Shown: in pieces, positions 1-37,704 of the stretch
How the letters are laid out: the number at the start of each line of letters is the position of its first letter
How positions within the stretch are numbered: the stretch's first letter is position 1
Source of the DNA: an uncultured Candidatus Saccharibacteria bacterium
GTDB lineage: Bacteria; Patescibacteriota; Kazan-3B-28; UBA10110
Assembly (NCBI GenBank): GCA_964424375.1
Contig: CAYRIH010000006.1
Coordinates: 1 to 45,352 of the forward strand
DNA length: 45,352 nt
Reading direction: 5' to 3'
Position numbers and translations under genes: made by a program
The notes under the pieces: model-generated
The model's input: the letters and a program-made list of their open reading frames with translations, nothing else
The model's database searches: none
Told to the model about the DNA's origin: nothing

Positions 1-543
1 GCTTTGGCTACTTATTATATTATTCAGCCTGCTGAAGTATCAGCTAACTTAGCTCGTTACGATGGTGTAAAATATGGATTGTCTGCAGGGGGTGATGAGA
101 AAATAGAAACTATTGAGGAGATGTATCGTCAAACTAGGGCAGGTGGATTCGGAAATGAAGTTAAAAGACGCATTATGCTAGGCACTTATGCTACCTCAGC
201 TGGTTTTAGAGATGCATATTATGATAGAGCTCGTAAAGTAGCTATGCTGATTAAACAAGATTTTGATAGAGCGTTTAAAGAAGTTGATGTGCTGGTTTCG
301 CCAACTACTCCAACTATCGCTTTTAAATTAGGAGAAAAGATTAACGATCCATTAAGTATGTATAAGGCTGATTTGTTAACCGCGCCAGCTAACATCGCTG
401 GTATTCCAGCCATATCAGTGCCATGTGGATTGTCTGAAGGTATGCCGGTGGGATTACAGATTATGGGGCCTCAGTTAGGTGAAAGTATAGTAATGCAAGT
501 AGCACATAATTATGAGCAAAGTGTGGATTGGAGGCAAGAATAA
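1..543 (+). CDS. gatA: Asp-tRNA(Asn)/Glu-tRNA(Gln) amidotransferase subunit A, 3' part (5'-truncated by window)
   Basis: [28 protein letters not shown] and PAISVPCG...[10 protein letters not shown] are GatA C-terminal motifs; gatB lies nearby. Confidence 0.95.
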
Positions 544-938
544 TGTGGTGGGGCATATTACTAGTTTTGGCTTTAGGTATATTGATGTTTTGGTTAACCA
601 CTTTAAAAAGAAATTTAACTAAAGCAGATAGAAAAATAGTAAGTAAACAATGGGATATGGTAGAAAAATTGTTTATCCAAAAAAGATTTAAAGAATCTAT
701 TTTAGAGGCAGATAAAACTTTCGATTTTGTTTTAAAAAGAATGAATATAAAGGGTGTTACTATGGGCGAAAGATTAAAAAACACTAAGTCATTTTTAATT
801 AATTATCATGATGTCTGGGAAGCACATAAAATTAGAAATAAATTTGTCCACGAAGTAAATTATCAAATAGAAGAAAGAAAGGCGCAGGAAGTCATTAGAG
901 TTTTTAGAAGAGCTATTAAAAGTCTTAAAGTTTTATAG
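543..938 (+). CDS. Hypothetical protein with an N-terminal TM helix and a helical (HEPN/DUF4145-like) domain
   Basis: ATG at 543 overlaps the gatA stop (TAATG); hydrophobic N-terminus; AHKIRNKFVH resembles an RxxxxH motif. Confidence 0.7.
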   Translation: MWWGILLVLALGILMFWLTTLKRNLTKADRKIVSKQWDMVEKLFIQKRFKESILEADKTFDFVLKRMNIKGVTMGERLKNTKSFLINYHDVWEAHKIRNKFVHEVNYQIEERKAQEVIRVFRRAIKSLKVL

Positions 939-2312
939 ATGAAATATATTCCGACAATTGGTTTAGAGATCCATGCCCAATTGGCAACTAAAACTAAAAT
1001 GTTTTGCCGTTGTGACAATGATGCTCAAGGAAAAGAACCCAATACAGTAGTTTGCCCTTTGTGTATGGGATTTCCGGGCACTTTGCCAGTAACTAACGAA
1101 ACTGCTATAGAATGGGGAGTAAAAACTGCATTAGCTTTAGGCTGTAAGATTAATAAATTTCAACGGTTTGACCGAAAAAATTATTTTTATCCGGATTTGC
1201 CGAAAGGTTATCAAATATCTCAATTCTTTTTTCCAGTAGGTGAACATGGCAGTGTTGAAGTGGATTATTTAGCTCAGGACAGAAAGACTAAAAAAGAATT
1301 TGCTGTTGGCATTACCCGACTTCATTTAGAAGAAGATGCCGGGAAGTTAATCCATACTAAAGGTAGCACATTGGTTGATTTTAATCGTTGTGGTACGCCC
1401 TTGGCAGAAATTGTGACAGAGCCAGATATAGAATCGCCAGAAGAAGCCAGAGCTTTTATGCAGGAACTACAAAGAATTGTGCGAGGCTTGGGAGTGTCGC
1501 ATGCTGACATGGAGAAAGGTCAAATGAGAGTAGATGCTAATGTTTCTATTAGGCCAGAAGGCCAAAAGGAGCTTGGCACTAAAGTAGAAATTAAAAACAT
1601 GAACTCTTTTAAATTTATGGAGCAAGCTCTGAAATTTGAGATTGAACGGCAAAAGAAAATTCTAGACGATGGCGGAAAGGTTGATCAAGAAACTAGAGGT
1701 TGGGATGAAAAATCTGGCACAACTATTTCCCAGAGAGGCAAAGAAGGGTCTATCGATTATCGTTATTTCCCAGAACCAGATTTGCCACCGATAGTGCTTG
1801 TTGATAAACAAATTAAAGATTGGCAAAAAGATTTGCCAGAATTGCCTAGCGATTTGCGTAAAAAGGCCGAAAGTTTTGGTTTGCCTTACAATCGAGTAAT
1901 TGAGTTACAAGATACAGGGAAATTAAGAGATTTTATAAATATTATGAAGAGTAATAAAGATTTAGCAAAAAAACCGCTGTTGATAGCTAACTATCCAGGA
2001 GATTTTGTGGATTTTTATAGATGGGCGATTAAAGAAAACCCACCTAATATAGTTTTACGAACAGTATATAAGGCTATGCTAGTTGGACTTTCTTTAGATA
2101 ATGCTAAAAAGGGAATTAAAGTTATGGATGAAGCTGAGATAGAGAAGGTGGTAGTCAAAGTGTTAAAAGACAATCCGAAAGTTGTAGAACAGTTCAAGGC
2201 GGGGGAGAGTAAGGTGTTAGGTTTTTTGACTGGTCAGGTTATGGCTAAAACTAAAGGTGAAGCAGAACCAGCTCTAGTCCAGCAAATTTTGCAAAAGTTA
2301 TTGACAAAATAA
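939..2312 (+). CDS. gatB: Asp-tRNA(Asn)/Glu-tRNA(Gln) amidotransferase subunit B
   Basis: IGLEIHAQL, FDRKNYFYPDLPKGYQISQ, HLEEDAGK and YRYFPEPDL motifs; C-terminal Yqey-like tail. Confidence 0.97.
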   Translation: MKYIPTIGLEIHAQLATKTKMFCRCDNDAQGKEPNTVVCPLCMGFPGTLPVTNETAIEWGVKTALALGCKINKFQRFDRKNYFYPDLPKGYQISQFFFPVGEHGSVEVDYLAQDRKTKKEFAVGITRLHLEEDAGKLIHTKGSTLVDFNRCGTPLAEIVTEPDIESPEEARAFMQELQRIVRGLGVSHADMEKGQMRVDANVSIRPEGQKELGTKVEIKNMNSFKFMEQALKFEIERQKKILDDGGKVDQETRGWDEKSGTTISQRGKEGSIDYRYFPEPDLPPIVLVDKQIKDWQKDLPELPSDLRKKAESFGLPYNRVIELQDTGKLRDFINIMKSNKDLAKKPLLIANYPGDFVDFYRWAIKENPPNIVLRTVYKAMLVGLSLDNAKKGIKVMDEAEIEKVVVKVLKDNPKVVEQFKAGESKVLGFLTGQVMAKTKGEAEPALVQQILQKLLTK

Positions 2313-2329
2313 ATAAAGTATGGTATAAT
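2301..2329 (+). promoter_or_regulatory. sigma70 promoter
   Basis: TTGACA (2301-2306), 17 nt, TATAAT (2324-2329), with an extended -10 TG. Confidence 0.75.
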
Positions 2330-2396
2330 GAAAGAAAGGGGTGGATTGACATCCTAAAGAAAGGATAATAAAATTAGATTACTAATTTAAAGAAAA

Positions 2397-2804
2397 GTGG
2401 CTCTAGAATTAGAAAACAATTCATTAAAAGAAGATAAATTTAATCAGGAGGCTAGACCTGAATCTTTAGGTAGTATTTCTGGAGGCGGGGAGACGGAAAG
2501 ACCACAGGAAAGCTCTGATGTTACTGAAATTCCGAGAGATGTCCTGGGTGTTGATGTGGAAACTGTATCACCAAAACCAACTGGGATAGATAAACTGAGT
2601 CCTGCCCAAGAGGAAATTTTAGCAAAAAGAAAAGAAAAAATAAGTGCGGTTATAAAACGAAAACGTCAACAGCAATATCCAGATACAGTAAAAATGGTTG
2701 AATTTATAGAAGGTGTAGAAGCAGCTTCGTCAGGGGGTGCTAAATCTGCCGCATTCTATGCGAGTGTGTCAGATCAAGTAAGGGGATTAGAAAAGTCAAA
2801 CTAA
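2397..2804 (+). CDS. Hypothetical protein (acidic, probably disordered N-terminus)
   Basis: 135-aa ORF with a GTG start, downstream of the consensus promoter and co-oriented with its neighbours. Confidence 0.65.
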   Translation: MALELENNSLKEDKFNQEARPESLGSISGGGETERPQESSDVTEIPRDVLGVDVETVSPKPTGIDKLSPAQEEILAKRKEKISAVIKRKRQQQYPDTVKMVEFIEGVEAASSGGAKSAAFYASVSDQVRGLEKSN

Positions 2805-6337: not shown

Positions 6338-7156
6338 TTACCAGATGAAGTTTGGTTGGAGATGGGGATCTTGAGAGCCTTCGTAAAAACGATTAGCATC
6401 TGCATCTGGTATCACTACCCTACTCCAATCTTCATTCATTAAAGTTAGTGGGTTTATAGCTGTTTTATAGCCGTCTTCAATTTTATCTACCTGAAAGTGA
6501 AGATGAGGATTAGTTGTTCCAGTATTACCTAAACGGCCTATTAAATCACCTATTTGAACTATGTCCCCTACTTTGACTGAAATATCTAAGAGATGTCCAT
6601 AGGTTATTGAATAATTATTTCCAGCATCAATTTCTACAGTTTTGCCAATCTTATCTCCTGTAAAAATTACCCTACCATCACTAGCAGAGGTAATTTCAAG
6701 GTCAACTCGGCCAGCAAAATCTATACCATTGTGCCGATTATCCCATTGGGGATATTCAATATTATATGGCTTAGTAATGGCTTCTATAGAACCAAACCAG
6801 CCATATACAAACCAGGTGTCTTGAGGGTTAGTAGAAATAAATTTACCATCTTTAACAGCAAATTTTATAGCACTATCCCCCACTTCCCAGATAATGCCAG
6901 GTGTATTGAAATCTGCACTAGTCCAATTGGATTCAATATTAAAAGGCAAAGATAGGTTGGGAAGTTGAAGTTCTTCCTGGCCATAAATTTTTAAAGGCGT
7001 TAGGTTGCTGTTATCCATTTCTCCTAAAACAGCCTCATTAGCCAATGAAGTTTGATGTGCTGAAATATCTTTATTGATACTGCTATCAGTAGTTAAATTG
7101 GTAGGTAAAAGCACAACCCCTAAAATCATCAGAGTTGTAGATAATTTTATTCGCAT
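6338..7156 (-). CDS. M23 family peptidase (peptidoglycan endopeptidase-like), secreted
   Basis: HNGIDF, YGHL and PHLHF zinc motifs; N-terminal signal peptide. Confidence 0.88.
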   Translation of the reverse strand: MRIKLSTTLMILGVVLLPTNLTTDSSINKDISAHQTSLANEAVLGEMDNSNLTPLKIYGQEELQLPNLSLPFNIESNWTSADFNTPGIIWEVGDSAIKFAVKDGKFISTNPQDTWFVYGWFGSIEAITKPYNIEYPQWDNRHNGIDFAGRVDLEITSASDGRVIFTGDKIGKTVEIDAGNNYSITYGHLLDISVKVGDIVQIGDLIGRLGNTGTTNPHLHFQVDKIEDGYKTAINPLTLMNEDWSRVVIPDADANRFYEGSQDPHLQPNFIW

Positions 7157-7196
7157 AACAAATTACTATATCAAGTTTAATTTGGCTTGGCTAGAT

Positions 7197-10100
7197 TTAC
7201 TTAATGAGCTTAATAATTTTTTTGATGCCTGCAATCCAATTATTTCCCACTGCAGTTAAAGGTAATTTGATTGTATTATCAATGATTTGAACTCCAGCAT
7301 TGTGCAGTGCTTTAAGTACATTTTTATCTTTTAATGCTGAGGTAAGAGTGATATTAATAATATATTCTGGAGTTTTGCTACCCGAAGGAGCTATGTTATG
7401 AGTAATAACAGAAGTGATTTTTTGAGTTTCCAATGCTGCTAATTTAAGTTTGAGTAAGTCGAATAAATTAATTACTTCCTTAGGTAGCTCCCCAAATTTT
7501 TCAAAAAGTTCTGACTGAGCTTCTTTTAATTCATTTTGACTTTCTATAAGCACCAACTGTTGATATGTTTTGATTCTTTGAGCCTCATTATCTATATAAC
7601 GATTTGGTAAGTAAGCAGATATTGGCAGGTCAACCGTGATGGTGTCTACTTGTGGCTTATAACCAGTTTTAAGCTTCTCTATAGCTCGGTTAAGTAATTT
7701 TGTATATAAAGTTAATCCAACTGCGCTTATATGTCCATGTTGTTTTTTTGATAGCACGCCGCCGGCTCCGCGGATCTGCAAGTCACGTAGGGCAATTTGA
7801 TAGCCACTACCCAGCTCTGTGTGGCCAGCAATGGTTTTGAGTCTTTCTAAAGCCTTTCCGGCCAGCTTCCCGGCGTGGTAGTAGAAATAAGCATGGGCCT
7901 GAACTTTCCCACGACCAATCCGACCTCTTAATTGATGAAGTTGGGATAAACCAAAATTGCCGGCATTATCTATTATTAAAGTATTAACATTAGGATTATC
8001 TAGGCCATTTTCAATAATTGTGCTGGCTACTAAGCAGTCATATTTGCCATTGCGGAAATCTTCCATAATTTTGGCTAACAAACGTTCTGGCATTTGCCCA
8101 TGAGCATAGACAAAACGAACCTCGGGCAGTATTTCTTCAAGTTTATTGGTCATGCTGGCAATAGTGGCAACTCGATTATGTACAAAATATATTTGCCCAC
8201 CCCTTTTGATTTCGTTGAGTATAGAGTCTTGAACTGATCCCATATTAAAGGGTGCTACGGTAGTTTGAATTGGTAATCGATTAATTGGAGGTGTTTCTAT
8301 GACACTAATGTCTCTAATTCCCGATAGTGCTAAATTAAGGGTTCTGGGTATTGGAGTAGCGGTTAAACTAAGGACATCCACTTCAGATCGTAATAATTTA
8401 AGTTTTTCTTTATGACTCACTCCAAATCGTTGTTCTTCATCGATAATTATCAAGCCCAAATTAGCAAAGCGAATATCTTTAGAAAGTAATCTATGGGTGC
8501 CGATTACCACATCTACTTCTCTAGTTTTTAGGCTGGCAACAATTCTTTTTTGTTCGACCGGTGATCGAAATCGACTTAAAGCGGCAACCTGCACCCCAAA
8601 TGGGCTTAAGCGTTCAGTGAAAGTTTCAAGGTGTTGCTCGGTAAGAATGGTAGTCGGGACCAAAATTGCTACCTGAAACCCAGAAGTTACAGCTTTAAAA
8701 GTAGCCCTAATAGCTACTTCAGTCTTTCCGAAACCCACGTCAGCAACTAATAGGCGGTCCATGGGTTTAGGTTTTTCCATGTCATTTAAAATATCTTGAA
8801 TTACCTGTTCTTGATCGGGTGTTTCTTGATGAATGAACGAATCTGATAGTGCTTGTTCCCAAAAACCTGCACTATCAAAAGATATTCCTTCTTTTAATGC
8901 TCGTTTGGCATATAGATCTAACAAATCTTTAGCAAATTCTTGGGATTCTTTTTTAATTTTACCAACCATTCGTTTCCAGTTTTGTGAACTAAGCTTAGAT
9001 AAGGTTGGTTTACCGCCATCGACTGATATATATTTACTAAGTTTATCTATTTGTTCTACTGGTACATAAATTCTATCTGATCCGGCGTATTTAATAATCA
9101 GATATTCCCGACTGATATTATTGATGGTCATAGTATCAATATCTATCAATTGTCCAATACCATGATCAGTGTGAACTACATAATCACCTTTGACAATTTG
9201 AGACAAGAAAGCTAATTGTCGTCGCTGAGGAGTTTTGCTATCCGCCTGGGATTTTTCAATAATGGGTGAAAAGATTTCTGTATCAGTTAATAAAATCTTT
9301 TTAAGAGATGGGTTCATAAATCCTTCAACTGATCCAATGTTAGTCAACACAACTTTATCCGTCAGGTCTCGACCAAAATTAATCTTATGTTCTTTTAAGA
9401 TTGGCAAGATGTGCTCCTCTTTATTGGTATTTATAATTATTTGCCAGCTGTTTTTAGTATATTTTTTAATTTCTTGCGCCAATCTGTTTAAATCATTAGC
9501 AAATAATGGGGCTTGAGCAAAATCAAATCGAATTAAACCTTCTTCAGTAGTAGGGATATTAATAAAATGCCAAGCAGAAAGATTGTCTAATTGCTTGCTA
9601 ACTGTGGTGAGAATACCATTGTCTTGCTGATGACCACCTTGATATAATTCATATAAAAGTTGAAATAGTTCATCAGCTTGATTAAATATGACAATGAATT
9701 CTTTGGGCTTATTTTCTATAATATCCAGTAAGTAACTGCTGATTTTTTCGTTTTTTATAGCTGGGACATCAATAACAGTATGTTGTCTAATAATTTTATT
9801 GCTTACTGGATCGAACTCGTTAATGTCAATTATAGTGTCGTCGTCGAATTTCAAACGGTATGGATGAGCATTATTAAGCGGAAAAATATCTAAAATTCCA
9901 CTATGCATAGCCACCTCGCCATTTTGAAACACTTTGCCCTGACGCTCATATCCCATAGATATTAACCAAGCTACAGTTTTGTCAGGCTGAAAATTTTTGC
10001 CTATTTTAAAATTGATGCCCATAGTGGGAATGGTCAAAGGCTCAATCAAAGCATTTATGGGAAATATAAATATTCCAGAATCATTTTGTTTCAGTGCTTG

Positions 10101-27896: not shown

Positions 27897-27915
27897 CTAA
27901 TAAATAGAATGTTGA

Positions 27916-28722
27916 TTAACTGGCTTTAAATGGTTTAAAGAATCTCCTTGAATAAATGATTTCTTTTATCCTATTTGTGTTAACAGAATCAATAGTATAG
28001 CCAATTAGACCTAAAGATATGATTGCCAATAGTGCCGTTAGCCAATTAATAGGCATGTCACGGTCAGCACTAATATCTTCTGTTATTAGGGCTGTTAATG
28101 ATGCTGTATCTAAAGATGCGAATACGGACTCTGTGATGAGAGCAGTTCTGAGTGTTGTTTGAGAAATATCACCAGCTATTATGGAAGTAGCTTGTGTCGA
28201 TTCTTTTTCTACTCCAAAATGCTGAGTTACAAAAATTATTTCTTTACCATTTACGAATCTAACAGCTACACCAACACCGATGTTAGTAAATTTATTTTCA
28301 AGCAAATTACGATAATGAGAGGGACTATCAATCCAAGCCTTCATTAACTTATCTGTAGAGGTGAATCCTTTGGCTAAATTTTCTCCAGCTAGTAAATAAT
28401 AGTAATCAGTATTATTGATCCAATAAGACATTCTTAGGCCTTCTGGATTAGCGTGGCTGAAATAACCTCTTTTGGCCATATCATTAGCTTTATTTAAAGC
28501 AGAAATCATTAAGCGATTATCTGGCATTAAACTAGGTAATCCAGATTCATTTCTAAGGCGATTGGTGTGCTCTATAATAGTATATCCTTGGTCAACTGCA
28601 AGATTAGCTGCTGATGTTCTAACTGGATTTGATACTATTATTAAAAGAGCTAGAATCGTTAGGCTGGTTCCAGTTAAAATATATTTATAAATAGGTTTTG
28701 TTTTTTGTTTTTTATTTAACAC
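27916..28722 (-). CDS. CAP (SCP) domain membrane protein
   Basis: TNRLR, KANDMAKRGYFSH, AGENLAKG, WIDSPSHYRNLL, IGVGV and TQHFG motifs; terminal TM helices. Confidence 0.88.
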   Translation of the reverse strand: MLNKKQKTKPIYKYILTGTSLTILALLIIVSNPVRTSAANLAVDQGYTIIEHTNRLRNESGLPSLMPDNRLMISALNKANDMAKRGYFSHANPEGLRMSYWINNTDYYYLLAGENLAKGFTSTDKLMKAWIDSPSHYRNLLENKFTNIGVGVAVRFVNGKEIIFVTQHFGVEKESTQATSIIAGDISQTTLRTALITESVFASLDTASLTALITEDISADRDMPINWLTALLAIISLGLIGYTIDSVNTNRIKEIIYSRRFFKPFKAS

Positions 28723-28738
28723 AAATCTAATTTTTAGG

Positions 28739-28793
28739 TTACTTTATTGTATCATAATTTTCTTTATTTGTCAATAGTTATTACTTTATTGTA
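28739..28793 (-). promoter_or_regulatory. sigma70 promoter overlapped by three direct repeats
   Basis: TTGACA (28774-28769), 17 nt, TACAAT (28751-28746); TTACTTTATTGTA at 28739 and 28781, with an imperfect copy at 28760. Confidence 0.6.
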
Positions 28794-28798
28794 AAATT

Positions 28799-28833
28799 AA
28801 AAACCCGAGCTGATTTTTTAAGCTCGGGTTTTT
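28799..28833 (-). terminator. Intrinsic terminator
   Basis: AAAAACCCGAGCT / AGCTCGGGTTTTT downstream of the large surface-protein gene. Confidence 0.8.
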
Positions 28834-28852
28834 TAAGAACTAATGTAATTTT

Positions 28853-31800
28853 TTATCTATCTTGCCAGTTATGGGTACGATAAGTAATAAATGTGGCCAT
28901 AATGCTTAGTCCAAGTAGTAACAAGAGTAGCAACCAAGCATTTGTTCCAGTTTGAGCCAAACCATTCTCATTTTGCTCGCCTAAAATATCTCCACCACCT
29001 GTTCCAGTATTGTTATCACCTAATGCTAATTCATCATTAGTATCCTCATCTTGTTCACCGGCTACCTCTTCTTCATCGGCAGGTGGAGTGTAATAGCCTC
29101 CGCCGCTTCCGCCACTGCCTTGCTGGTCAACTCCACCTTCTTGATTGCCAAAGTCAATGCCATGCCATTCATTGGTGCCGGAATCTATGGTTAAATTATA
29201 GGCATAGTTGTAATCATATCCTGGAAAAGTTTGTGACCAGCCAGATTGAATTTCCTCTCGTACGACATAGTCACCATATTCCAAATCAATAAAGGAGTAA
29301 TTGCCATAATTGTCAGTACTCTGATAAGGTTCATCTTGATCTTTTTCGCCGTTAACATTTAAGTCCAAATAAATTATCCATTCCGCCAAACCATCTTCTC
29401 CCTCATCTTTTTCAGCATTGCCGTTAACATCGTTAAATTTCATGCCTGTGATTAAACCAAGTTCTGGTTCCTCTTCTTCGTCTTCCATAATTTCTCGATT
29501 ACCAAAATTTAATCCAGTTGATTCGTCATTGGCTGATACGGGATAAAAACCGTCTGGTAATGGCGCTGTTTGTACCCAACCAGATTGGGTTTGTTCAGCA
29601 ATTATTACATTACCTTCTATACCAGCAAGATTGAGCCAATAATTGCCATCAATATCAGTTATATCCTCTGCTACGACTTCGTATATTTTTACAGTTAAAG
29701 TGCCAACATTATTAGAAGCATAGATGTCATAAATTTGGAAAGTTACTGGGTTGCCATCTCCAAATAAAGTGTGCCAATAGACATGGCTGGGGTTATAAGA
29801 GCCCCAATCAGGCGCAATCTCATCAATATGCAGATCAAGTAGAGTTGGTCCCCAAGATTCATAGTTTTGGACTATGTCAGTCCATTCTGTATTCGGTTCC
29901 CTTACAGAATATTTAGCATCGGCAGTAATCAAGTCACCAGCATGAAATGTGCTAGAAACTCTCAGGAAATACTTTTGAAAATCTATTAAAGGCATAGAAT
30001 CAATTGGTGTACCTGTTTCTGGCCCATTAGAATCTACTTCTAAAGTTTCTACCAATTTACCAGCATAGATTGTCCAGCCTTCCAAGCCTTCTTCTCCTTC
30101 GTCTTGCTCGCCGTTGTCATTGCGATCATTAAACTTCATTCCAGAAGCACAACCATTGTCTTCTTGGTATGGGTCCTCACAGGCTAACTCATTAATGATT
30201 GTAGTTGTGCTGGCTTCTGCCCATATAATCTCACCTTCATTATTAGGTTCTGTGTTAACTCTGCCTAAAGCCGTATTGTCTATACTACAGACATCTGGCA
30301 ATGAATAAATAGCTCTTACTCCATCAACATCAAATCCATCAGTGGTCTCAGTGTTAAAGAAATCATCAGGATTAGATACATCTATAATTTTAATATATCT
30401 GGCCCAAGTTAAATCACTTAAATCAACTGTTCCATCTAAAATAATGGTGCCCAAGTATGCCCAGTTTATGCCGTATTGTGAGGCATAGATTTCAGCAGTT
30501 TCTGGGTATTGCTCTTCACTGGGATTTCCATAACTGGTTTCGAATACTTCTATATCATCACCATCGCCGTTGATAATATAGTTGTTAAATCCTAAAACCA
30601 GCTCGCCACCACCTTGGTCATCACCAAAGCCCAATGAGACAAAATTAAGTGTGTCGTTATTTTCAGCTTCACCCAAAGCATTTTCTGGATCACTTCTTTC
30701 TTCTAATACTGGCTGTCTATCTTTACGTAAACCTTGATTAAATGATTCTACCCAGTCAGCCCAGACATCCATTGATACAAAAGCATCAAGGGTCACTATA
30801 AATGATACAGTGCCACTGTCTGGAGCAACAATATCCCCTAAGTTCCAAGTTACTGTGCCGCTCGATTCAGTGCCGCCATTATCGGCTGAAACAAAACTGG
30901 TTCCATCTGGCAATTCATCAGTAATCACCATATCATAAGCTATACCTTCACCAATCACTGACCAATTAATAGTATAAATTATCTCACCAGTTTCAGGGTT
31001 AAATTCTCCAAACTTTTCTAGTTCTAAATAGTTACAAGCTCCATAAGTGGCATCAATAGCATCAATATCATAGCCATCTGCTCCATCAATATGGAGATTA
31101 AAATCAGTAGTGTCAGTAATACGAACATACTTAATCCATGGTAATCCTGTGGAACTAAAATCTAAATAGTCTATACCATTGTCTGGAGCCTGGTTGGTAG
31201 CAGTGCCTATTTCATACCAATCACTGCCATTTTGACTAACTTCCACTAAAATAGTTTCTTCTGGATATGAATATCTGCCGTAAGTTATTTCATGAAAAGA
31301 TAAATCATTACCCTCAACATCTAAGATGTATTGATTGAATGATACAACTAAATTACCACCTTGTCCCAAGCTGTAGAAAACACCATCGGGTTCGCCTAAA
31401 GCAGATTCTGGATTGCTCCGACCTGTCTCTACTGAACCCCCACCTTTAATAGGGCCTTGGTTATAGCTTTCTACATTATCAGCCCATTGTGGTCCGGGCT
31501 GACATGGTTCTGGGCAAACTTCTTCTACCCAAACATTATCTAAAAAGGTGCCTAATGAATTAGGATTGCCCAAATCAGAAAATTGAACCCTAGTAATATC
31601 CGAGACAGCCTCGAATGTATATGTATGGTAACTCCAATCAACATCTGTCTCCCCTGGTCTAGAGATAGTATCAACTATATCTCCATCCCACTCAAATTGT
31701 AAGATATTATCATCTACACTGGTATCTGGCCGAGGTGAAAAATAAAAAGAGACTTTATATAAATTACCAGGGGTAGTTGTCAGGTCTTGATAAATATAAA

Positions 31801-32491
31801 CAGAAGCTGGCTCACCGCTCATAGAACCACTTGGTCCGTCCCAGTCAGTATCTAATTCTGCATATTGATTACCAGACTGTGCAATCCAATCATTAACTCC
31901 GGCTTGCAGTTCTAATAAAGCTGGATTTGGTCTTTGATAATCACCATAAACAGTTGGTACGGTTGGCATCCAATTACCAAACCAATCAGTTAAATTAGAA
32001 TTTAATGGAAATATATCCCATTGGTAAGAAGAATCTACGTCTGGATATTCAAAATCTCCATTAAGTATCATGTTTTCTCCACAAGGCAATGGTGGATTAG
32101 GAATAACATCAAGATCTTCTGGTGGATAGGCAGATGGCTCAACTGGTTCAATAAAATCACCAGATTGATCAGCTTCACCTAATATTTCTTCATTATTGCC
32201 TTCATTTCCTTCAGAATTTGTTGCCTCATCTGTATCACCTTCATCTCCAGTATCCATATCTTCTATAGGGTCTTCATTCTCTATAAAATTTTCGTCCGGA
32301 TCTGATAATTGCTCTTCGGCATCTCCATCCCCACTTCCTTCTTCTTTAATAATGACTGGATCTTGAGGATTTTCCTGGGCTAAAACCCAGGAATTAGCAA
32401 CAGGTGCTAATAAAAGAGATATTGCTAGTACAAAACACAAGCTAATCTTAAAAGTTGCTTGTTGTGTACGAAAACACTTTTTAACATTCAT
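28853..32491 (-). CDS. Large acidic cell-surface protein: DUF642-like, two internal repeats, DUF11-like, two SdrD-B-like domains, LAQTG+TM tail
   Basis: Signal peptide; NMILNGDFE; WADxVESxNQG twice; ITDELPDGTSFVSA; GMKFND...GEEGL twice; C-terminal LAQTG, TM helix and short tail. Confidence 0.8.
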   Translation of the reverse strand: MNVKKCFRTQQATFKISLCFVLAISLLLAPVANSWVLAQENPQDPVIIKEEGSGDGDAEEQLSDPDENFIENEDPIEDMDTGDEGDTDEATNSEGNEGNNEEILGEADQSGDFIEPVEPSAYPPEDLDVIPNPPLPCGENMILNGDFEYPDVDSSYQWDIFPLNSNLTDWFGNWMPTVPTVYGDYQRPNPALLELQAGVNDWIAQSGNQYAELDTDWDGPSGSMSGEPASVYIYQDLTTTPGNLYKVSFYFSPRPDTSVDDNILQFEWDGDIVDTISRPGETDVDWSYHTYTFEAVSDITRVQFSDLGNPNSLGTFLDNVWVEEVCPEPCQPGPQWADNVESYNQGPIKGGGSVETGRSNPESALGEPDGVFYSLGQGGNLVVSFNQYILDVEGNDLSFHEITYGRYSYPEETILVEVSQNGSDWYEIGTATNQAPDNGIDYLDFSSTGLPWIKYVRITDTTDFNLHIDGADGYDIDAIDATYGACNYLELEKFGEFNPETGEIIYTINWSVIGEGIAYDMVITDELPDGTSFVSADNGGTESSGTVTWNLGDIVAPDSGTVSFIVTLDAFVSMDVWADWVESFNQGLRKDRQPVLEERSDPENALGEAENNDTLNFVSLGFGDDQGGGELVLGFNNYIINGDGDDIEVFETSYGNPSEEQYPETAEIYASQYGINWAYLGTIILDGTVDLSDLTWARYIKIIDVSNPDDFFNTETTDGFDVDGVRAIYSLPDVCSIDNTALGRVNTEPNNEGEIIWAEASTTTIINELACEDPYQEDNGCASGMKFNDRNDNGEQDEGEEGLEGWTIYAGKLVETLEVDSNGPETGTPIDSMPLIDFQKYFLRVSSTFHAGDLITADAKYSVREPNTEWTDIVQNYESWGPTLLDLHIDEIAPDWGSYNPSHVYWHTLFGDGNPVTFQIYDIYASNNVGTLTVKIYEVVAEDITDIDGNYWLNLAGIEGNVIIAEQTQSGWVQTAPLPDGFYPVSANDESTGLNFGNREIMEDEEEEPELGLITGMKFNDVNGNAEKDEGEDGLAEWIIYLDLNVNGEKDQDEPYQSTDNYGNYSFIDLEYGDYVVREEIQSGWSQTFPGYDYNYAYNLTIDSGTNEWHGIDFGNQEGGVDQQGSGGSGGGYYTPPADEEEVAGEQDEDTNDELALGDNNTGTGGGDILGEQNENGLAQTGTNAWLLLLLLLGLSIMATFITYRTHNWQDR

Positions 32492-32698
32492 GTCTTTTCC
32501 TAATTAATAAATAAATTACTCCACCCCTTCAAGGCTAAAGAATTACCTTCACTTGGTCAAGTGTAGTAAAAAGCTCTTAAATAAAAAAAATTTAAGAACC
32601 TATTTCAAATTTCTAGAATCTAAGAACAATAGTTATCATCCAGTCCTATTTGGACTAGTTTTATTATTGCGAAAAATTAGCTTCCAGAGCTATAAATG

Positions 32699-32727
32699 TT
32701 GACATGTAGGTATTTATGTGGTAAATT
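32699..32727 (+). promoter_or_regulatory. sigma70 promoter
   Basis: TTGACA, 17 nt, TAAATT, with an extended -10 TG. Confidence 0.55.
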
Positions 32728-32758
32728 ATCCATACCAAACTCAGCAAAGGAGGGATTG

Positions 32759-33127
32759 ATGAACCTTAACAAGTCTTTGATTGTATTATACATATTCATA
32801 TTCTTTTCGATATGTATAACTCTTGGTATTTATATCAACTTTGCGCAAGTCAGTCAGCAGATGTTGATTGACTTAGATCAGCAGGTCATCTCCCTACAAG
32901 ATGATAAGCAAGCTCTGCAGGATGAGATTAACACCATAACTGGTAGAACGTTACAGTTATGGCTAGTAAACGAAAACGGGGAGTTGATTCCATTGGGCTC
33001 TACAAGGTTTTTTAGGGAATTAATTCCCGAAAACCCAAACCTTTTCACTGAGGATTTAGGTAATGGTATCGGTTTTACAGGTAACAGAATCGATATCTAT
33101 TTACCAAAAGAATCCATCCACCAATAA
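32759..33127 (+). CDS. Hypothetical protein with a TM helix and coiled coil
   Basis: AAGGAGG SD before ATG 32759; 122 aa. Confidence 0.7.
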   Translation: MNLNKSLIVLYIFIFFSICITLGIYINFAQVSQQMLIDLDQQVISLQDDKQALQDEINTITGRTLQLWLVNENGELIPLGSTRFFRELIPENPNLFTEDLGNGIGFTGNRIDIYLPKESIHQ

Positions 33128-33138
33128 GGAGGCTTACT

Positions 33139-33315
33139 ATGTCTCTTACTTTAGATGATATGAACATGGATCTTGGAGAGAACAAAGGCGAAAAGCAACT
33201 TGAACAGTTGGTTGCTCGAGCTGTTGCCTCTCAATTGGCTTTTCGGCTGTGTAACAGCTTAATAACCGGATTGCATAGCGATGATCCGGTAACCCGGCTG
33301 CTACAAGGCGAATGA
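33139..33315 (+). CDS. 58-aa hypothetical protein absent from the ORF track (MSLTLDDMNMDLGENKGEKQLEQLVARAVASQLAFRLCNSLITGLHSDDPVTRLLQGE)
   Basis: TAAGGAGG SD overlapping the upstream stop; ATG 33139; TGA 33313-33315; terminator immediately after. Confidence 0.7.
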   Translation: MSLTLDDMNMDLGENKGEKQLEQLVARAVASQLAFRLCNSLITGLHSDDPVTRLLQGE

Positions 33316-33322
33316 ACTCCTT

Positions 33323-33352
33323 AACCCCCACAGTATTTATTGTGGGGGTTTT
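33323..33352 (+). terminator. Intrinsic terminator
   Basis: AACCCCCACA / TGTGGGGGTT plus TT. Confidence 0.7.
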
Positions 33353-33376
33353 ATTATTGAATTAAAAAACCTCAAA

Positions 33377-33820
33377 TCAAGAATTTATCCGTAACTTATT
33401 GATATCATCAACTGTAATCCAGGCAGACATCATACCGTAACCACTCTTATCAATTTCAAATGGTTTTATTTTTTTAGGATCACTAAGAAAGATTAATAAA
33501 CAATAGTTCTTATTTTTGAACATCTGATAGTATTTATCTATTTTATCTATCCCTAACCCATCCTTTATTCCATACCTATCGAGTATCTCTTTAACTTTCT
33601 TGGGATTTAGATTAGAAAACTGTAATACTTTAGATACTATTGTTTTTACAGTAACTAGTTCACCAGAATCTTTGAAATAGACAATATCTCCTTTGCTGAT
33701 TCTATCCCAAGGGGCATATTTATTCTTATACCAACGAGATTCTATTGTCTTTTCCTTAGTTAAAATCTTAGGCAGTAAACCCCAAGACTTCTTCATTATG
33801 GCTAAATGGTGTCTATTCAT
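33377..33820 (-). CDS. ASCH/PUA-like domain protein
   Basis: HLAIM...KILTKEKTIESR...GDIVYFK motif. Confidence 0.75.
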   Translation of the reverse strand: MNRHHLAIMKKSWGLLPKILTKEKTIESRWYKNKYAPWDRISKGDIVYFKDSGELVTVKTIVSKVLQFSNLNPKKVKEILDRYGIKDGLGIDKIDKYYQMFKNKNYCLLIFLSDPKKIKPFEIDKSGYGMMSAWITVDDINKLRINS

Positions 33821-33855
33821 ATCTTGATTATAATACTAATTTAAACAACCTAAAG

Positions 33856-33880
33856 AAAAAACCACCCAAGAATGGGTGGT
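33856..33880 (-). terminator. Intrinsic terminator
   Basis: ACCACCCA/TGGGTGGT with a T-run on the minus strand. Confidence 0.6.
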
Positions 33881-33953
33881 AATGGAATTGGCATAATCGG
33901 ATATCACTTTGATTTGATAGCAAGAATGGTTTCATCTGCTTCAGTCAGTTTGC

Positions 33954-34271
33954 TTAAGTACCTGATTGTATCGTCAGTTCATCGGCGAGAGCTACACATG
34001 AATCGCTTTTAATACGATAACCTTTGATGCCAGATGGGTCGACTAAAATCATTGTAGATTGAGGCGGCAAGAATGTTCCTGGGCTAACTTTTCCAGATTC
34101 TTCTATCTGTTTATACAGTGCCTCTGCAATAGACCGATTTTTCACATAAATAAGCTTTGTCGGATCATCTCCAAAGGAACAAAGAATATTTACTGGAAAC
34201 CACCATTCTATAGTCCATTTAGATAGGTCAGCCCTCTCTAATGGATGCATCCCGTCTTCTAACGCGCCCAT
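33954..34271 (-). CDS. Hypothetical protein
   Basis: AAGGAGG SD; 105 aa. Confidence 0.7.
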   Translation of the reverse strand: MGALEDGMHPLERADLSKWTIEWWFPVNILCSFGDDPTKLIYVKNRSIAEALYKQIEESGKVSPGTFLPPQSTMILVDPSGIKGYRIKSDSCVALADELTIQSGT

Positions 34272-34440
34272 ATTCTGGGACCTCCTTTATTTCAAGATTG
34301 CAGTGATACTTCATAATAAAATAAACCTATATGTTTGTATAGGTTTGAGTATTAAAAAACCCTCAATTTTATATGTGGGTATACATTTTCATTATTTTTA
34401 CACAGAACGTACATTATCTGAGCCCAAAGGTTCTTTTTTC

Positions 34441-34923
34441 TTAATAACGAGTTCTACTATCCAGTATACCAACTGCTAACAATATAACTACAGCAACTAT
34501 ACTGCTCAACAACCAACCAAACAAAACAAGAAACAACTTCACTAACCCGAATTGCGACATAATCCGAATGACTAAGAATGATGTCCCCCAAGGGTGCCAC
34601 CGCTTTTCTGAGCGCTGAAATGCCTCAAAATTATTCCATTTATTTGTATTCCAACTCCATCGTCGAGCATGTCTCCAAAAGAAATAACCAGTTACAATAG
34701 CGACCAACATACCGGGCGCCATTAGAATAATACCTGATAAAAGATCCGAAAACCAATCAATGTTGTGAGTAAGTGTAAAATTAAGAAATATAAAAATATA
34801 CAATGGAATTGCAAGAAACAACCCTCGAGCTAAAATATTACCTGGACCAAACACTGTCATTGAAGGTTGTTTAATATATTCAATTTGTGATTCAGATAAT
34901 TTTTCTTTTTCACGTATTTTCAT
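34441..34923 (-). CDS. Membrane protein with a Trp-rich loop (DUF2628-like)
   Basis: 3-4 TM helices; ARRWSWNTNKWNNFEAFQRSEKRWHPWG. Confidence 0.65.
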   Translation of the reverse strand: MKIREKEKLSESQIEYIKQPSMTVFGPGNILARGLFLAIPLYIFIFLNFTLTHNIDWFSDLLSGIILMAPGMLVAIVTGYFFWRHARRWSWNTNKWNNFEAFQRSEKRWHPWGTSFLVIRIMSQFGLVKLFLVLFGWLLSSIVAVVILLAVGILDSRTRY

Positions 34924-35038
34924 TATTTTTTAATTAAGTTGTATGTCACCACGGGACAAAACCGTTCCCAAAGGTTTTATCCATGATTTGGTAGCCTGAC
35001 GTTACCGGATGATGTTAAAACTTTTTGTATAGAAAAAG

Positions 35039-35779
35039 TTAAGAAAAATCAATATTTTTTACTAGCTCAATAACTTCATTGAGAAATATCGTAAAGTCAC
35101 CGTTCTTGTCTCGATTCTGTTTATATATTTCTAAAACTTTCGATCTTATCTCTAAATGTTTTGTATACCCAGAATCAGGTTTTGATAGCAGTTCCCTCAT
35201 GTCTTGATTAAGTAGAATTGTTAATATTTCTTTTAAATGCTGTATTTTTGTCTCATCTAAACCTTTATCTAAACAATGCTGCCTATATTTCTTCAAAAAT
35301 TCGATATGCATTATTTCATGCATGGCAATATCCTCAAAACCACCATACTGATTAAACATAAACCCATTGTTATGGAAAGGACACCGCACACCAAAGGTAA
35401 AGAATCCAAAATATTCTTTCTCCATATCAGCGATAGGAATATCCATCATTTTAGATAGAGCTGTAAAGTATTGAACAGTGATATTATTCCAACGTTTTGC
35501 CGCTTCTTTAATCCTATGACCTGCTAAGCTTTTCATTTCTGGGTTTCCGTAAAAATCTTTTACTTTTTGTCTGATTAAATCCTTAGACTTTTGTTCAGAT
35601 TCAGTATTAGAAATAATATCAGCAACATCTGCTGGTATGCCACCAGGGTTAAATTTAGTTTTGCCACTATTTAAACCATATACAGATTCTTTGGCAAAGG
35701 TGTTATACCAGTTTTGAGCTTCCCATTCTAAATCGAAACCCAAAACCATTCTCGGATATATAGGTTGTTTATTATCCAT
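35039..35779 (-). CDS. Hypothetical protein with an HExxH motif (zincin-like)
   Basis: AMHEIMH followed by HLKEILT (possible third ligand Glu). Confidence 0.65.
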   Translation of the reverse strand: MDNKQPIYPRMVLGFDLEWEAQNWYNTFAKESVYGLNSGKTKFNPGGIPADVADIISNTESEQKSKDLIRQKVKDFYGNPEMKSLAGHRIKEAAKRWNNITVQYFTALSKMMDIPIADMEKEYFGFFTFGVRCPFHNNGFMFNQYGGFEDIAMHEIMHIEFLKKYRQHCLDKGLDETKIQHLKEILTILLNQDMRELLSKPDSGYTKHLEIRSKVLEIYKQNRDKNGDFTIFLNEVIELVKNIDFS

Positions 35780-35797
35780 ATTTTAATAATAGCAGAT

Positions 35798-35828
35798 AAA
35801 AAAGCGCACCGTTTAATAACGGTGCGCT
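35798..35828 (-). terminator. Intrinsic terminator closing the radical SAM-peptide operon
   Basis: AGCGCACCGTT (35803-35813) / AACGGTGCGCT (35818-35828), followed by a T-run on the minus strand. Confidence 0.8.
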
Positions 35829-35856
35829 GTGCACAGCGCGCAATGGAATGTACTGC

Positions 35857-36012
35857 TTAGTCGGGATCAGAAGGATCTGGACAATCCATACATTCGTGGC
35901 ACTCACCTGTGCATGGACTACCTCCAGTACATTCCGCTGATAAAGTCTCGGAATGTCCGTTTTGAGAGATAACATCAGAATCTCTTTCGGAAAAAACAAG
36001 AATCGCAAGCAT
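35857..36012 (-). CDS. Putative RiPP precursor peptide, 51 aa (MLAILVFSERDSDVISQNGHSETLSAECTGGSPCTGECHECMDCPDPSDPD)
   Basis: AAGGAGGT SD overlapping the rSAM stop; Cys-free leader and a core with 5 Cys; terminator follows. Confidence 0.72.
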   Translation of the reverse strand: MLAILVFSERDSDVISQNGHSETLSAECTGGSPCTGECHECMDCPDPSDPD

Positions 36013-36029
36013 TTCGAATCGCACCTCCT

Positions 36030-37382
36030 TTAATAAGAATTGTTGGGTAAACGATTGATTAAATCTAATGCCTTGAGACGAATTATCAAAGGGATGCACT
36101 CAGTAAAAACTTTACAATAAGGAGATTTAGACTGAGCCACGCCCGAGTAACTTACATTCGCAATAGAACATCCTCCCCCACATATTAATGCCCAAGGGCA
36201 ATCAATACAAGGAGAATTGTCTGCCAATACTCCTTTCTCTGTGAGCCCAGGAATAGTTTCTTGAGACCATGCCATTTGCAAAAAAGTAGTTGCATCATCA
36301 AGATTGCCCAGAGGTTGTTTGTCCATTTGAGACTGACAAACAAAAACATCGCCCAAATGACTAACTGCCACACCAGAATAACCAACGTTACAAGCCCGAA
36401 GATGAGAACGACGATTAATATGAATATCGCATAATTGGTGTTTAAATTTGGTTATCTTTTTGCGGATTGAATCAGCGTAATATAAATAGCAATCCCTTAG
36501 AACAACCAGAACTCTTTCCACAAACTCCTGATAACTTTCATACGACCCGTCGTAGTCTCGAAATAACCCATAACGAAACGGCAGATTGTTATCAATAAGA
36601 TATTTGCTGAGAACTGGAATACCTTCGATATTAACTTCGGTAATAGTTGTTAATATCTGAGGATGCATACCTCGCGATATACAAAGATCAATAGAGTGTT
36701 TTACCTGCTTGAATGATTCTCCATGACCATTTCTAATAGGCCTCAACGCATTATGCACTTTACCAATCCCGTCTAATGAAATGGAGAGAATAATCGAGTG
36801 TTTAGAAAGATAATTTAACCAACGTGTCGAAAGCGTCACCCCATTAGTAATCAGGATTAACTTCAGGTCAACATCTTGCCGTAAAAAACGTTTTTCACAC
36901 TCATTAACCACATATTCGATAATAGGACGGTTTAGCGTAGGTTCCCCGCCCGTCAATCTAATAGCCACTGATTGCAATTCATGAACTCTCACAGTTTGCT
37001 CTAGTTTATCGATATACTTACGAGCAATTTCGATAGACATATGTCGCCTATCATGTTTATTGGCGATATAACAGTACGAACAGTCAAGATTGCAATCATT
37101 TGTGATATGTAACCAGGTACTCATAGATCTGATATTCGATGTTTTGAGTGTGTACTTGAGAACGTTGGCTGGTATTTTCTGGCTTACAACTAAGCCATTG
37201 TCAATCAGACGCCTTATTCTTAATTCATCAATATTTATCTGATGCCCAGGTAAACTCTCAAGTAGATCTTTGGTCTCCATATCCATCAAAACTACTCCAT
37301 CTTTCGAACCAGGAACAAATGCATAACCATATCCATCAACGTCATCGATAAAACAATTGTTTACCTGATGATACTGAGACAT
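36030..37382 (-). CDS. Radical SAM/SPASM domain protein, putative peptide maturase
   Basis: CNLDCSYC; TGGEPTL; ITNG; SISLDG; SPASM cysteines ACNVG...DVFVC...CIDCPWALICGGGC...YC; ~85-aa N-terminal extension. Confidence 0.92.
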   Translation of the reverse strand: MSQYHQVNNCFIDDVDGYGYAFVPGSKDGVVLMDMETKDLLESLPGHQINIDELRIRRLIDNGLVVSQKIPANVLKYTLKTSNIRSMSTWLHITNDCNLDCSYCYIANKHDRRHMSIEIARKYIDKLEQTVRVHELQSVAIRLTGGEPTLNRPIIEYVVNECEKRFLRQDVDLKLILITNGVTLSTRWLNYLSKHSIILSISLDGIGKVHNALRPIRNGHGESFKQVKHSIDLCISRGMHPQILTTITEVNIEGIPVLSKYLIDNNLPFRYGLFRDYDGSYESYQEFVERVLVVLRDCYLYYADSIRKKITKFKHQLCDIHINRRSHLRACNVGYSGVAVSHLGDVFVCQSQMDKQPLGNLDDATTFLQMAWSQETIPGLTEKGVLADNSPCIDCPWALICGGGCSIANVSYSGVAQSKSPYCKVFTECIPLIIRLKALDLINRLPNNSY

Positions 37383-37430
37383 TTTCAGTCCTCCTTATTA
37401 TCAAAGATTTCACTTAATAGTGATGATTAC

Positions 37431-37459
37431 AATATATTAAAAAACTAGCTCTAGGTCAA
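37431..37459 (-). promoter_or_regulatory. sigma70 promoter of the rSAM operon
   Basis: TTGACC (37459-37454), 17 nt, TATATT (37436-37431); AAGGAGG SD at 37396-37390. Confidence 0.55.
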
Positions 37460-37471
37460 GCTTATTCAGGA

Positions 37472-37545
37472 TGGCTGGGGTGGCAGGATTCGAACCTACG
37501 ATCACGGGACCAGAACCCGTTGCCTTACCACTTGGCTACACCCCA
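37472..37545 (-). tRNA. tRNA-Gln(CTG)
   Basis: TGGGGTGTAGCCAAGTGGTAAGGCA; anticodon arm ACGGG-TT CTG GT-CCCGT; GGTTCGAATCC; encoded CCA. Confidence 0.97.
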
Positions 37546-37576
37546 ATGTTTAATATTTCCTTTATGCACGATTTTA

Positions 37577-37635
37577 TTGCCTTACTCACTTGCCTGCCCG
37601 CTGACGCGGGACGCGGCCAGGGGCTACACCCCAAT
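37577..37635 (-). pseudogene. Relic 5' part of tRNA-Gln interrupted by a 30-bp insertion
   Basis: TTGCCTTACtCACTTG [30 nt] GCTACACCCCAAT matches 37520-37547 apart from the insertion and one extra T. Confidence 0.7.
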
Positions 37636-37682
37636 AATGACATCTAGATTATAACTTAACACAGAATCTGTCCATAATACTT

Positions 37683-37704
37683 AACGGCTCATCCATGAGC
37701 CGTT
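37683..37704. terminator. Hairpin, possible terminator
   Basis: AACGGCTCAT-cc-ATGAGCCGTT. Confidence 0.45.

Follow-up and report, generated by a model that had tools for sequence, protein, structure and literature searches.

Radical S-adenosylmethionine (rSAM) enzymes with a SPASM domain act on Cys-rich substrates in several described systems, and the closest of these set the frame for the locus reported here. QhpD (TIGR03906, in NCBIfam the quinohemoprotein amine dehydrogenase maturation enzyme) forms Cys-Asp/Glu thioethers in QhpC, an enzyme subunit. The SCIFF maturases (TIGR03974), among them CteB with its precursor CteA (5wgg, 5why), are clostridial; they combine a recognition element (RRE) for peptides that are synthesized on ribosomes and modified after translation (RiPPs) with rSAM and SPASM domains, act on a short Cys-rich precursor and have no dedicated exporter. 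To our knowledge, these systems have no partner protein with an HExxH motif. PapB (NF047865), the SPASM rSAM enzyme of the ranthipeptide freyrasin, acts on the Cys- and Asp-rich precursor PapA; it links Cys to Asp or Glu and accepts Cys-Xn-Asp with n = 0-6 (PMC9413430). Ranthipeptides as a class are defined by a thioether from the Cys sulfur to a carbon of the acceptor residue other than the α-carbon. In Methanococcus voltae, CrpC, a SPASM rSAM enzyme with an RRE, installs ranthionine links on the Cys-rich C-X-X-Q/D substrate CrpA (PMC13692751). HExxH proteins of RiPP pathways have been characterised as α-ketoglutarate (α-KG) oxygenases: PMC12636437 describes the HExxH domain of ChlB as hydroxylating Asp and His in an rSAM-made RiPP, and PflC and PosC as hydroxylating Gln residues and cleaving the backbone oxidatively; PflC can also hydrolyse. 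The ChlB/FxsB-type enzymes with their α-KG-HExxH proteins are the only described pairing of rSAM/SPASM and HExxH zincin-like proteins in RiPP maturation found in the literature searched. Here we analyse a 45,352-nt stretch of DNA from an uncultured Candidatus Saccharibacteria bacterium (assembly GCA_964424375.1, contig CAYRIH010000006.1, positions 1 to 45,352; hereafter the window), in which genes for an rSAM/SPASM enzyme, a 51-residue peptide and an HExxH protein follow one another on the reverse strand. Judged from sequence comparison, they are a conserved three-gene RiPP cassette, of a family for which no description was found in the literature searched, subscription journals and supplementary files lying outside this search.

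In kind, the predicted cassette is a SPASM-rSAM system for a Cys-rich peptide. Its features are, in the direction of transcription:

37431-37459 (-): promoter-like site TTGACC-17 nt-TATATT upstream of the rSAM gene, 10 of 12 positions matching
37390-37396 (-): Shine-Dalgarno (SD) sequence AAGGAGG of the rSAM gene, 7 nt ahead of the ATG, as read from the sequence
36030-37382 (-): putative radical SAM/SPASM peptide maturase, 450 aa, with an RRE-like domain (about residues 1-70), a CX3CX2C motif and a seven-Cys SPASM domain
36023-36030 (-): SD sequence AAGGAGGT of the peptide gene, overlapping the rSAM stop codon by one base, its last, and lying 10 nt ahead of the peptide ATG
35857-36012 (-): putative precursor peptide, 51 aa, with a leader motif hydrophobic-Ser-Glu at residues 3-10 and an acidic core with five Cys
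35803-35828 (-): intrinsic-terminator-like hairpin and T run between the peptide and HExxH genes, 11-bp stem with seven G-C pairs
35039-35779 (-): HExxH zincin-fold protein, 246 aa, the third partner, beginning 24 nt past the hairpin and lacking an SD sequence

An earlier note on this DNA had described a complete minimal two-gene unit of promoter, SD, a 450-aa rSAM enzyme, a second SD overlapping its stop codon, a 51-aa open reading frame (ORF) and a strong terminator. All of these elements were found in place, and the hairpin region has a folding energy of -26.5 kcal/mol (z = -4.2). The promoter fared less well: the site is present, but such sites are no more frequent across the region than in shuffled sequences (8 found, 9.9 expected), so that a promoter of the rSAM gene is only plausible. 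The unit does not end at the terminator either. The conserved HExxH gene follows it and travels with the enzyme and the peptide genes in other genomes, and the unit therefore comprises three genes, not two.

With the window protein as tblastn query, relatives of the HExxH protein were found adjoining enzyme and peptide in 23 loci. A profile of 13 family members divided 160 fetched loci with homologous enzymes into 23 with peptide and HExxH gene, 14 with the peptide only, several of them on short contigs, five with the HExxH gene only and 118 with neither. A peptide gene was recognised when its 26 C-terminal residues held at least four Cys and at least five Asp/Glu. This flagged 39 of the 160 loci; two (L031, L046) were removed by eye as unrelated, leaving Cys/Asp-rich peptides next to homologous enzymes in 37. 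Inspection of 30 enzyme relatives revealed such a short ORF directly after the enzyme gene in 25. Since Cys/Asp-rich ORFs recur in this position, the 51-codon ORF is not a chance ORF. At least one HE..H ORF of at least 110 aa was present in 23 of 30 peptide-bearing loci (28 of the 142 neighbouring ORFs), and some of these ORFs belong to other, likewise unannotated HExxH lineages. On this evidence a zincin-fold HExxH protein is the constant third partner of the predicted cassette.

The window peptide has five Cys (C28, C34, C38, C41 and C44) and thus the Cys-free leader of 27 residues, the CHE, CMD and CPD triplets and the PDPSDPD tail that the earlier note had described. In ten aligned peptides, E9, C41, D43 and C44 are invariant. 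The leader of the close clade consists of hydrophobic residues followed by Ser-Glu-x-Glu, and its core usually ends in a strongly conserved Cys-Pro-Asp-Gly-Asp-Cys-Cys-Thr-Asp-Tyr; the window peptide is a divergent member, which retains the invariant Cys-x-Asp-Cys-Pro and ends in Pro/Asp repeats. The leader and core motifs come back in short ORFs, equally placed and preceded by a strong SD, in loci with enzymes only 30-50 % identical. The peptide of the window and nine relatives matched no NCBIfam model, the SCIFF precursor included, and ten peptides scanned against Pfam at E <= 10 gave no match. A large protein collection held 24 predicted homologous peptides, all of them unnamed or 'hypothetical'.

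The spacing of Cys and acidic residues was evaluated in 37 distinct cores against 2000 within-core shuffles; as the cores are related sequences, the counts are descriptive and not probabilities. Asp or Glu directly precedes Cys in 159 of 231 cases (0.69, 0.33 in shuffles), a value reached by none of the 2000 shuffles, and is depleted at position i-2 (0.14). At i+2 the enrichment is weak (92 of 228, 0.40 against 0.335; 10 of 2000 shuffles as high), and at i+4 the count of 69 of 207 equals the shuffle mean. Successive Cys are mostly two or three residues apart (68 and 54 of 195 intervals). By these counts the conserved family unit is [Asp/Glu]-Cys with a period of 2-3, not Cys-x-Asp/Glu, and the C-x-acidic triplets appear to be largely a consequence of this periodicity. 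The i to i+2 Cys-Asp/Glu link, proposed earlier as the signature of a class, is thereby reduced to one possibility; Cys/Asp-rich peptides do recur beside homologous enzymes, but the C-x-[D/E] spacing is not their best-conserved trait. The core of the window contains no Cys with Asp or Glu at i+4, hence no CX3D/E motif of the PapB precursor type, and the system differs from PapB also by the position of the acid ahead of Cys, the Cys distance of 2-3 and the constant HExxH partner. The statement that this core has no CX3D and is no SCIFF sequence stands. Peptides of 62-65 aa with dense Cys-Asp/Glu-Cys repeats were seen beside more distant enzyme relatives in two genomes of the same phylum (L166 in G365, L167 in G352); L166 carries two different peptides.

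The enzyme of the window matches Radical_SAM (68 bits) and Fer4_12 in Pfam, together with a SPASM stretch at residues 331-396 that scores 16.6 bits, under the cut-off of 21.5. The cluster motif C97-x3-C101-x2-C104 is invariant in 56 of 56 aligned relatives, as are the seven SPASM Cys (C331, C349, C392, C395, C401, C405 and C423) and G344, in the pattern C-x(n)-G-x4-C ... C-x2-C-x5-C-x3-C ... C of rSAM/SPASM maturases. The CxxxCxxC and SPASM cysteines of the earlier description are thus all ten conserved throughout. An eighth invariant SPASM Cys was not present in the alignment of the 56 relatives; we take the seven-Cys set to be a CteB-like arrangement, in which a substrate thiolate could presumably bind at an unoccupied cluster site.

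Eighty rSAM models of NCBIfam match the enzyme, none of them near its cut-off. PapB scores best (132.6 bits, cut-off 340), as it does with seven of the nine family members sampled. This model gives 121.5-164.7 bits, always under 340, for eight relatives and for the second copy in the same genome. NF047865 aligns only to residues 89-414 and leaves the N-terminal domain uncovered. QhpD and SCIFF fall within 94-110 bits, SCIFF at 94 against a cut-off of 425, and CrpC (TIGR04463) gives 57.7 against 525; its substrate CrpA is a large repeat protein and not a peptide of 40-50 aa. The earlier note had regarded an affiliation to anSME as the case against a RiPP enzyme; with 107.2 bits, the enzyme stays far under the cut-off of that family (349.45, TIGR03942). 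Close relatives, 62 in number and 39-58 % identical, come from Patescibacteria lineages where they are named; the next-best match has only 31 % identity. The AF2 model (pLDDT 91.5) has CteB (5wgg) as closest solved fold (Foldseek E 4.7e-19, TM 0.69/0.71 over 466 columns, the N-terminal domain included), followed by TigE, anSME, SuiB, SkfB and ChlB. No curated family takes in the enzyme, which is by its predicted architecture a RiPP-type maturase, and the proposal of a RiPP-type pair outside the described families is borne out in that neither enzyme nor precursor matches a curated family.

Residues 1-90 of the enzyme have no Pfam match. In the AF2 model the N-terminal 70 residues form a short winged-helix-like domain of three or four strands (11-15, 18-22, 31-33) and only two helices (35-42, 53-61). 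A model of the complex of enzyme and precursor reached ipSAE 0.84 in each of three runs, whereas the highest of three controls was 0.00; in the calibration, 58 of 80 solved complexes attained the mark, as did 2 of 110 mismatched pairs, counts that hold only roughly here because custom alignments were used. The runs share at least 31 % of the contacts. Confident contacts connect peptide residues 3-10 with enzyme residues 27-34, 36-37 and 54-62, by strand pairing on the N-terminal domain. The modelled domain is RRE-like, and the leader motif is predicted to dock there as in known RRE-leader complexes, in line with the suspicion that the N-terminal extension may be an RRE.

The third partner carries a gluzincin-type motif. 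Ten residues are invariant in 13 of 13 family members: H154, E155, H158, K183, E184, T187, G204, Y205, H208 and R212. The helices 148-171 and 176-185 of the AF2 model (pLDDT 91.4) carry the HExxH motif and, 26 residues past the second His, the invariant E184. This is the combination of HExxH with a downstream Glu on the next helix that marks gluzincins (MA clan), and E184 is a candidate metal ligand. An exhaustive structural search yielded as ten best matches the catalytic domains of M1 aminopeptidases or LTA4 hydrolases (Z 6.2-7.6, 151-163 residues aligned); thermolysin gave Z 5.3. The nearest named Atlas clusters are putative peptidases: Peptidase_M78 (21 % of the members), then DUF4932, Peptidase_Mx1 and DUF5700. 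The family profile retrieved nothing meaningful among the PDB sequences. A word-indexed search found 334 members, with no Pfam domain among the 120 listed, and a search of 1.84 billion representatives gave 974 at E <= 0.001, of which 526 lie at or under 1e-10 and 185 at or under 1e-30.

A second cassette lies on another contig of the same genome (locus L162, C1: 55538-59098), with the following genes in the numbering of the locus:

454-1308 (+): HExxH protein, 284 aa, of an unrelated lineage
1378-2670 (+): rSAM/SPASM enzyme, 25 % identical to the window enzyme (E 5e-21)
2672-2791 (+): Cys/Asp-rich peptide, 39 aa

The HExxH protein of this locus has no detectable similarity to that of the window and matches DUF4932 weakly (23.7 bits, cut-off 28.7). 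The best model for its rSAM enzyme is QhpD, with 130.8 bits under a cut-off of 453; genes of the quinohemoprotein amine dehydrogenase type, which belong to the QhpD system, do not occur near the cassette. By gene content, two cassettes of the same design and of different lineages are thus predicted within one genome of 0.65 Mb.

We favour, with moderate confidence, the reading as a three-gene RiPP cassette that makes a ranthipeptide-like thioether product with the help of a metallopeptidase. The rSAM and peptide genes are probably co-transcribed, the putative terminator standing after the precursor gene. The 51-aa precursor would dock on the enzyme, its leader residues 3-10 adding a β-strand to the RRE-like domain at residues 27-37 and 54-62 of the model. 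The enzyme would use one SAM-cleaving cluster, and the seven-Cys SPASM domain would hold two auxiliary clusters. A 5'-deoxyadenosyl radical may then abstract a hydrogen atom from acceptor residues of the core, and the Cys sulfur would be joined to those carbons; the acceptors would most likely be the abundant Asp/Glu residues, as with PapB and QhpD. The five Cys could form up to five thioether rings in a compact, strongly acidic polycyclic peptide. Thioether chemistry is favoured because the best curated models, PapB and, for the second copy, QhpD, are thioether formers and because the closest fold is CteB; among the reactions considered, thioether links from Cys to acidic residues have the best support on sequence and model grounds, and are so far a prediction. 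Short rings would be feasible since PapB tolerates spacers down to n = 0 (PMC9413430). The HExxH zincin-fold partner would most likely trim the leader as a metallopeptidase, to judge from motif and fold; we give this role about an even chance, the remainder being split between oxidative tailoring and other functions. No exporter belongs to the conserved unit, and the product may act intracellularly or exit by an unlinked route. Metal binding, signalling and antagonism towards a host are candidate roles.

Several observations weigh against this reading. On the side of the chemistry, the PapB score is followed by DynA (110.1 bits), nif11 (107.7), anSME and HxsB (106.2), and the acid before Cys in the family motif is the reverse of the Cys-X3-Asp order of PapB. 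The complex may owe its score to a resemblance to leader-RRE structures already solved, CteB/CteA among them, and the fold of the peptide itself is uncertain in the complex (pLDDT 43-46). The HExxH gene stands behind a terminator and without an SD sequence, so its co-expression with the other two genes is an expectation only. Its protein and family are matched by no model of Pfam or NCBIfam, those of peptidases included, Foldseek with the AF2 model returned nothing at E <= 0.001, and all matches of the exhaustive search stay under Z 8, the line below which the tool advises caution; the HExxH domain of ChlB (8s5f), an α-KG oxygenase, is among them with Z 5.2. In locus L001 a separate Peptidase_MA_2 gene (6591-7250, (-)) lies beside the HExxH family member, and two of six longer family members scanned (P0321, P0348) are fused to a transglutaminase-like protease core domain. 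Another protein might therefore remove the leader.

The partner may, with the same architecture, be an Fe(II)/α-KG oxygenase that β-hydroxylates Asp or cleaves the backbone oxidatively, giving a metal-chelating, metallophore-like peptide with thioether and hydroxy-Asp groups. We regard this as unlikely. It has precedent in ChlB, PflC and PosC, rSAM-linked HExxH proteins shown to be α-KG hydroxylases (PMC12636437), and would agree with the match to 8s5f and with the extremely Asp-rich cores. The invariant His208 and Arg212, one helical turn apart, could serve as metal ligand and α-KG binder. A metallophore would also recall the Methanococcus SPASM enzyme on a Cys-rich substrate, linked to growth on pyrite (PMC13692751). 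A glutamate dehydrogenase (223.8 bits) is encoded in the genome, so α-KG is available; isocitrate dehydrogenase was not found in the genome. As aminotransferases are present as well, a lack of α-KG, once considered as an argument against an oxygenase, does not discriminate and was dropped. The family tests speak against the oxygenase: the model of the α-KG-HExxH hydroxylases (TIGR04267/IPR026337) matches none of the 13 HExxH family members even at E <= 10 and nothing in this genome, and hhalign against three true TIGR04267 domains from other genomes gives a probability of 0.4 % (E 0.15) over only 29 columns around HExxH. Because these model and profile comparisons fail, membership in the known hydroxylase family was rejected; an analogous hydroxylase activity is compatible with the same tests. 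The M1 peptidase domains surpass 8s5f in the structural search, with Z up to 7.6, and the nearest named Atlas clusters are peptidase-like. In ChlB/FxsB-type systems, moreover, the domains are fused and the rSAM enzyme forms cyclophanes, whereas the HExxH family described here is separate and has no sequence likeness to them beyond the motif. The 2.7-kb cassette stretch was met in four DNA runs of one study, labelled marine sediment metagenome and possibly the source sample; this habitat is often anoxic, which counts slightly against an oxygenase. RNA runs were not listed for the stretch.

The thioether reading faces a second competitor in an rSAM enzyme with non-thioether chemistry, i.e., conversion of Cys to a formylglycine-like residue as by anSME, an X-Cys heterocycle (thio-oxazole, as annotated for SbtM) or C-C/C-O cross-links at non-Cys residues. 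This, too, appears improbable to us. In its favour, the models of anSME, DynA, nif11 and HxsB trail PapB by no more than about 25 bits, and of the solved structures anSME is the best match by sequence (E 7.8e-16). The relative P0069 additionally matches the SbtM model with 83.6 bits, and a reaction involving the residue ahead of Cys would fit the strict [D/E]-Cys dipeptide. None of these models reaches its cut-off either, though, only seven SPASM Cys are invariant, and the best fold match is CteB, with its N-terminal domain. The best models for the two copies of this genome, PapB and QhpD, are both annotated for Cys-Asp/Glu thioether formation.

Going further than the thioether cassette with a metallopeptidase, one may imagine that ultra-small symbionts have a RiPP class not yet described, which would pass by horizontal transfer between Patescibacteria and perhaps also DPANN archaea. 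In it, [Asp/Glu]-Cys runs would be stapled into very short thioether rings, a new zincin-fold lineage would act beyond leader trimming, e.g., in oxidative Asp tailoring, and the product would be an acidic polycyclic metal-binding or host-directed factor, retained despite genome reduction and here in two copies; in this full extent the proposal is speculative and rather doubtful. That the 51-codon ORF arose by chance and the enzyme matures a protein encoded elsewhere in the manner of anSME is very improbable: the low SPASM score may be held in its favour, but same-motif ORFs with strong SD recur beside divergent enzymes, and in the complex model the conserved leader sits on the enzyme, the controls scoring 0.00.

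The arrangement of signals around the terminator is recurrent. Of nine loci compared, the window among them, eight have a strong SD ahead of the peptide gene, and a G+C-rich hairpin with a U run separates the peptide and HExxH genes in 6 of 7 loci folded, the hairpin sequences being unrelated. HExxH genes lack an SD in all ten loci (window 35780-35802; L001, L002, L081, L091, L093, L096, L103, L104 and L132), and in at least seven of the ten a -10-like hexamer ends 6-8 nt upstream of the HExxH ATG, directly past the terminator. This suggests a separate, possibly leaderless transcript for the HExxH gene, as far as such hexamers can be trusted in AT-rich DNA.

The genome comprises 654,059 bases on 31 contigs and is 93.75 % complete. 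Enzyme relatives at E <= 1e-40 occur in 6 of 401 sampled genomes of the phylum, this one included, and in none of 11 genomes of the same family. Six same-family genomes keep the order gltX, GT4 (glycosyltransferase), membrane protein, tRNA-Gln; after the tRNA-Gln, no part of the cassette was found in these six. One of them rejoins the gene order of the window near position 27,900. Since synteny breaks at the tRNA and resumes there, the intervening 9.5 kb or so (27900-37470) represent a variable segment. Features in and near this segment are:

27916-28722: CAP-domain protein, within the variable segment
28853-32491: SdrD_B/DUF11 surface protein, 1212 aa, within the variable segment
37472-37545 (-): tRNA-Gln(CTG), the border at which the conserved gene order (gltX, GT4, membrane protein) adjoins the variable cassette segment
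37825-38016 (-): EncFtn-like (encapsulated-ferritin-like) gene, 63 aa, 75.5 bits, between the conserved membrane-protein gene and the tRNA-Gln

The EncFtn-like gene was not detected by tblastn in the six same-family genomes. An Rfam scan of 34000-39000 returned the tRNA alone. Within 37546-37635 (-), an exact 14-nt repeat of the tRNA-Gln 5' end stands 88 nt upstream of the tRNA, followed by a self-pairing, unusually G+C-rich stretch without an Rfam match; they may represent what is left of a tRNA, or else terminate the upstream gene. No integrase and no att-like flanking repeats were seen around the cassette; the 14-nt copy, the one exact repeat worth mention, does not flank it. The downstream gene for a 160-aa membrane protein and other small ORFs recur in none of the 160 loci, and apart from the HExxH gene no neighbour is recurrent. 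A census of the 142 neighbouring ORFs in 30 loci contained no transporter family among the 25 of 86 families shown, those matched by most ORFs, which agrees with the earlier observation that the unit has no transporter.

Patescibacteria have tiny genomes, and the usual view is that they produce hardly any specialised metabolites. In one survey, the Patescibacteria genomes yielded no biosynthetic clusters (PMC11613949). RiPP clusters had likewise been called unexpected in such reduced genomes by the earlier note; the cassette family turns out to be typical of Patescibacteria, though patchy, as seen in the six of 401 genomes. A genome of about 0.65 Mb devotes two separate loci to a peptide-modification cassette, and none of the curated models tested matches its families of enzyme, peptide and partner, the last of which comprises 974 representative clusters by itself. 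Of all parts of the cassette, the HExxH partner has the least settled role and is of the greatest interest. Once worked out, the chemistry would add a RiPP family and provide a function for a large orphan zincin-like family, and it may open a way to a compound with which episymbiotic bacteria may act on their hosts or manage metals.

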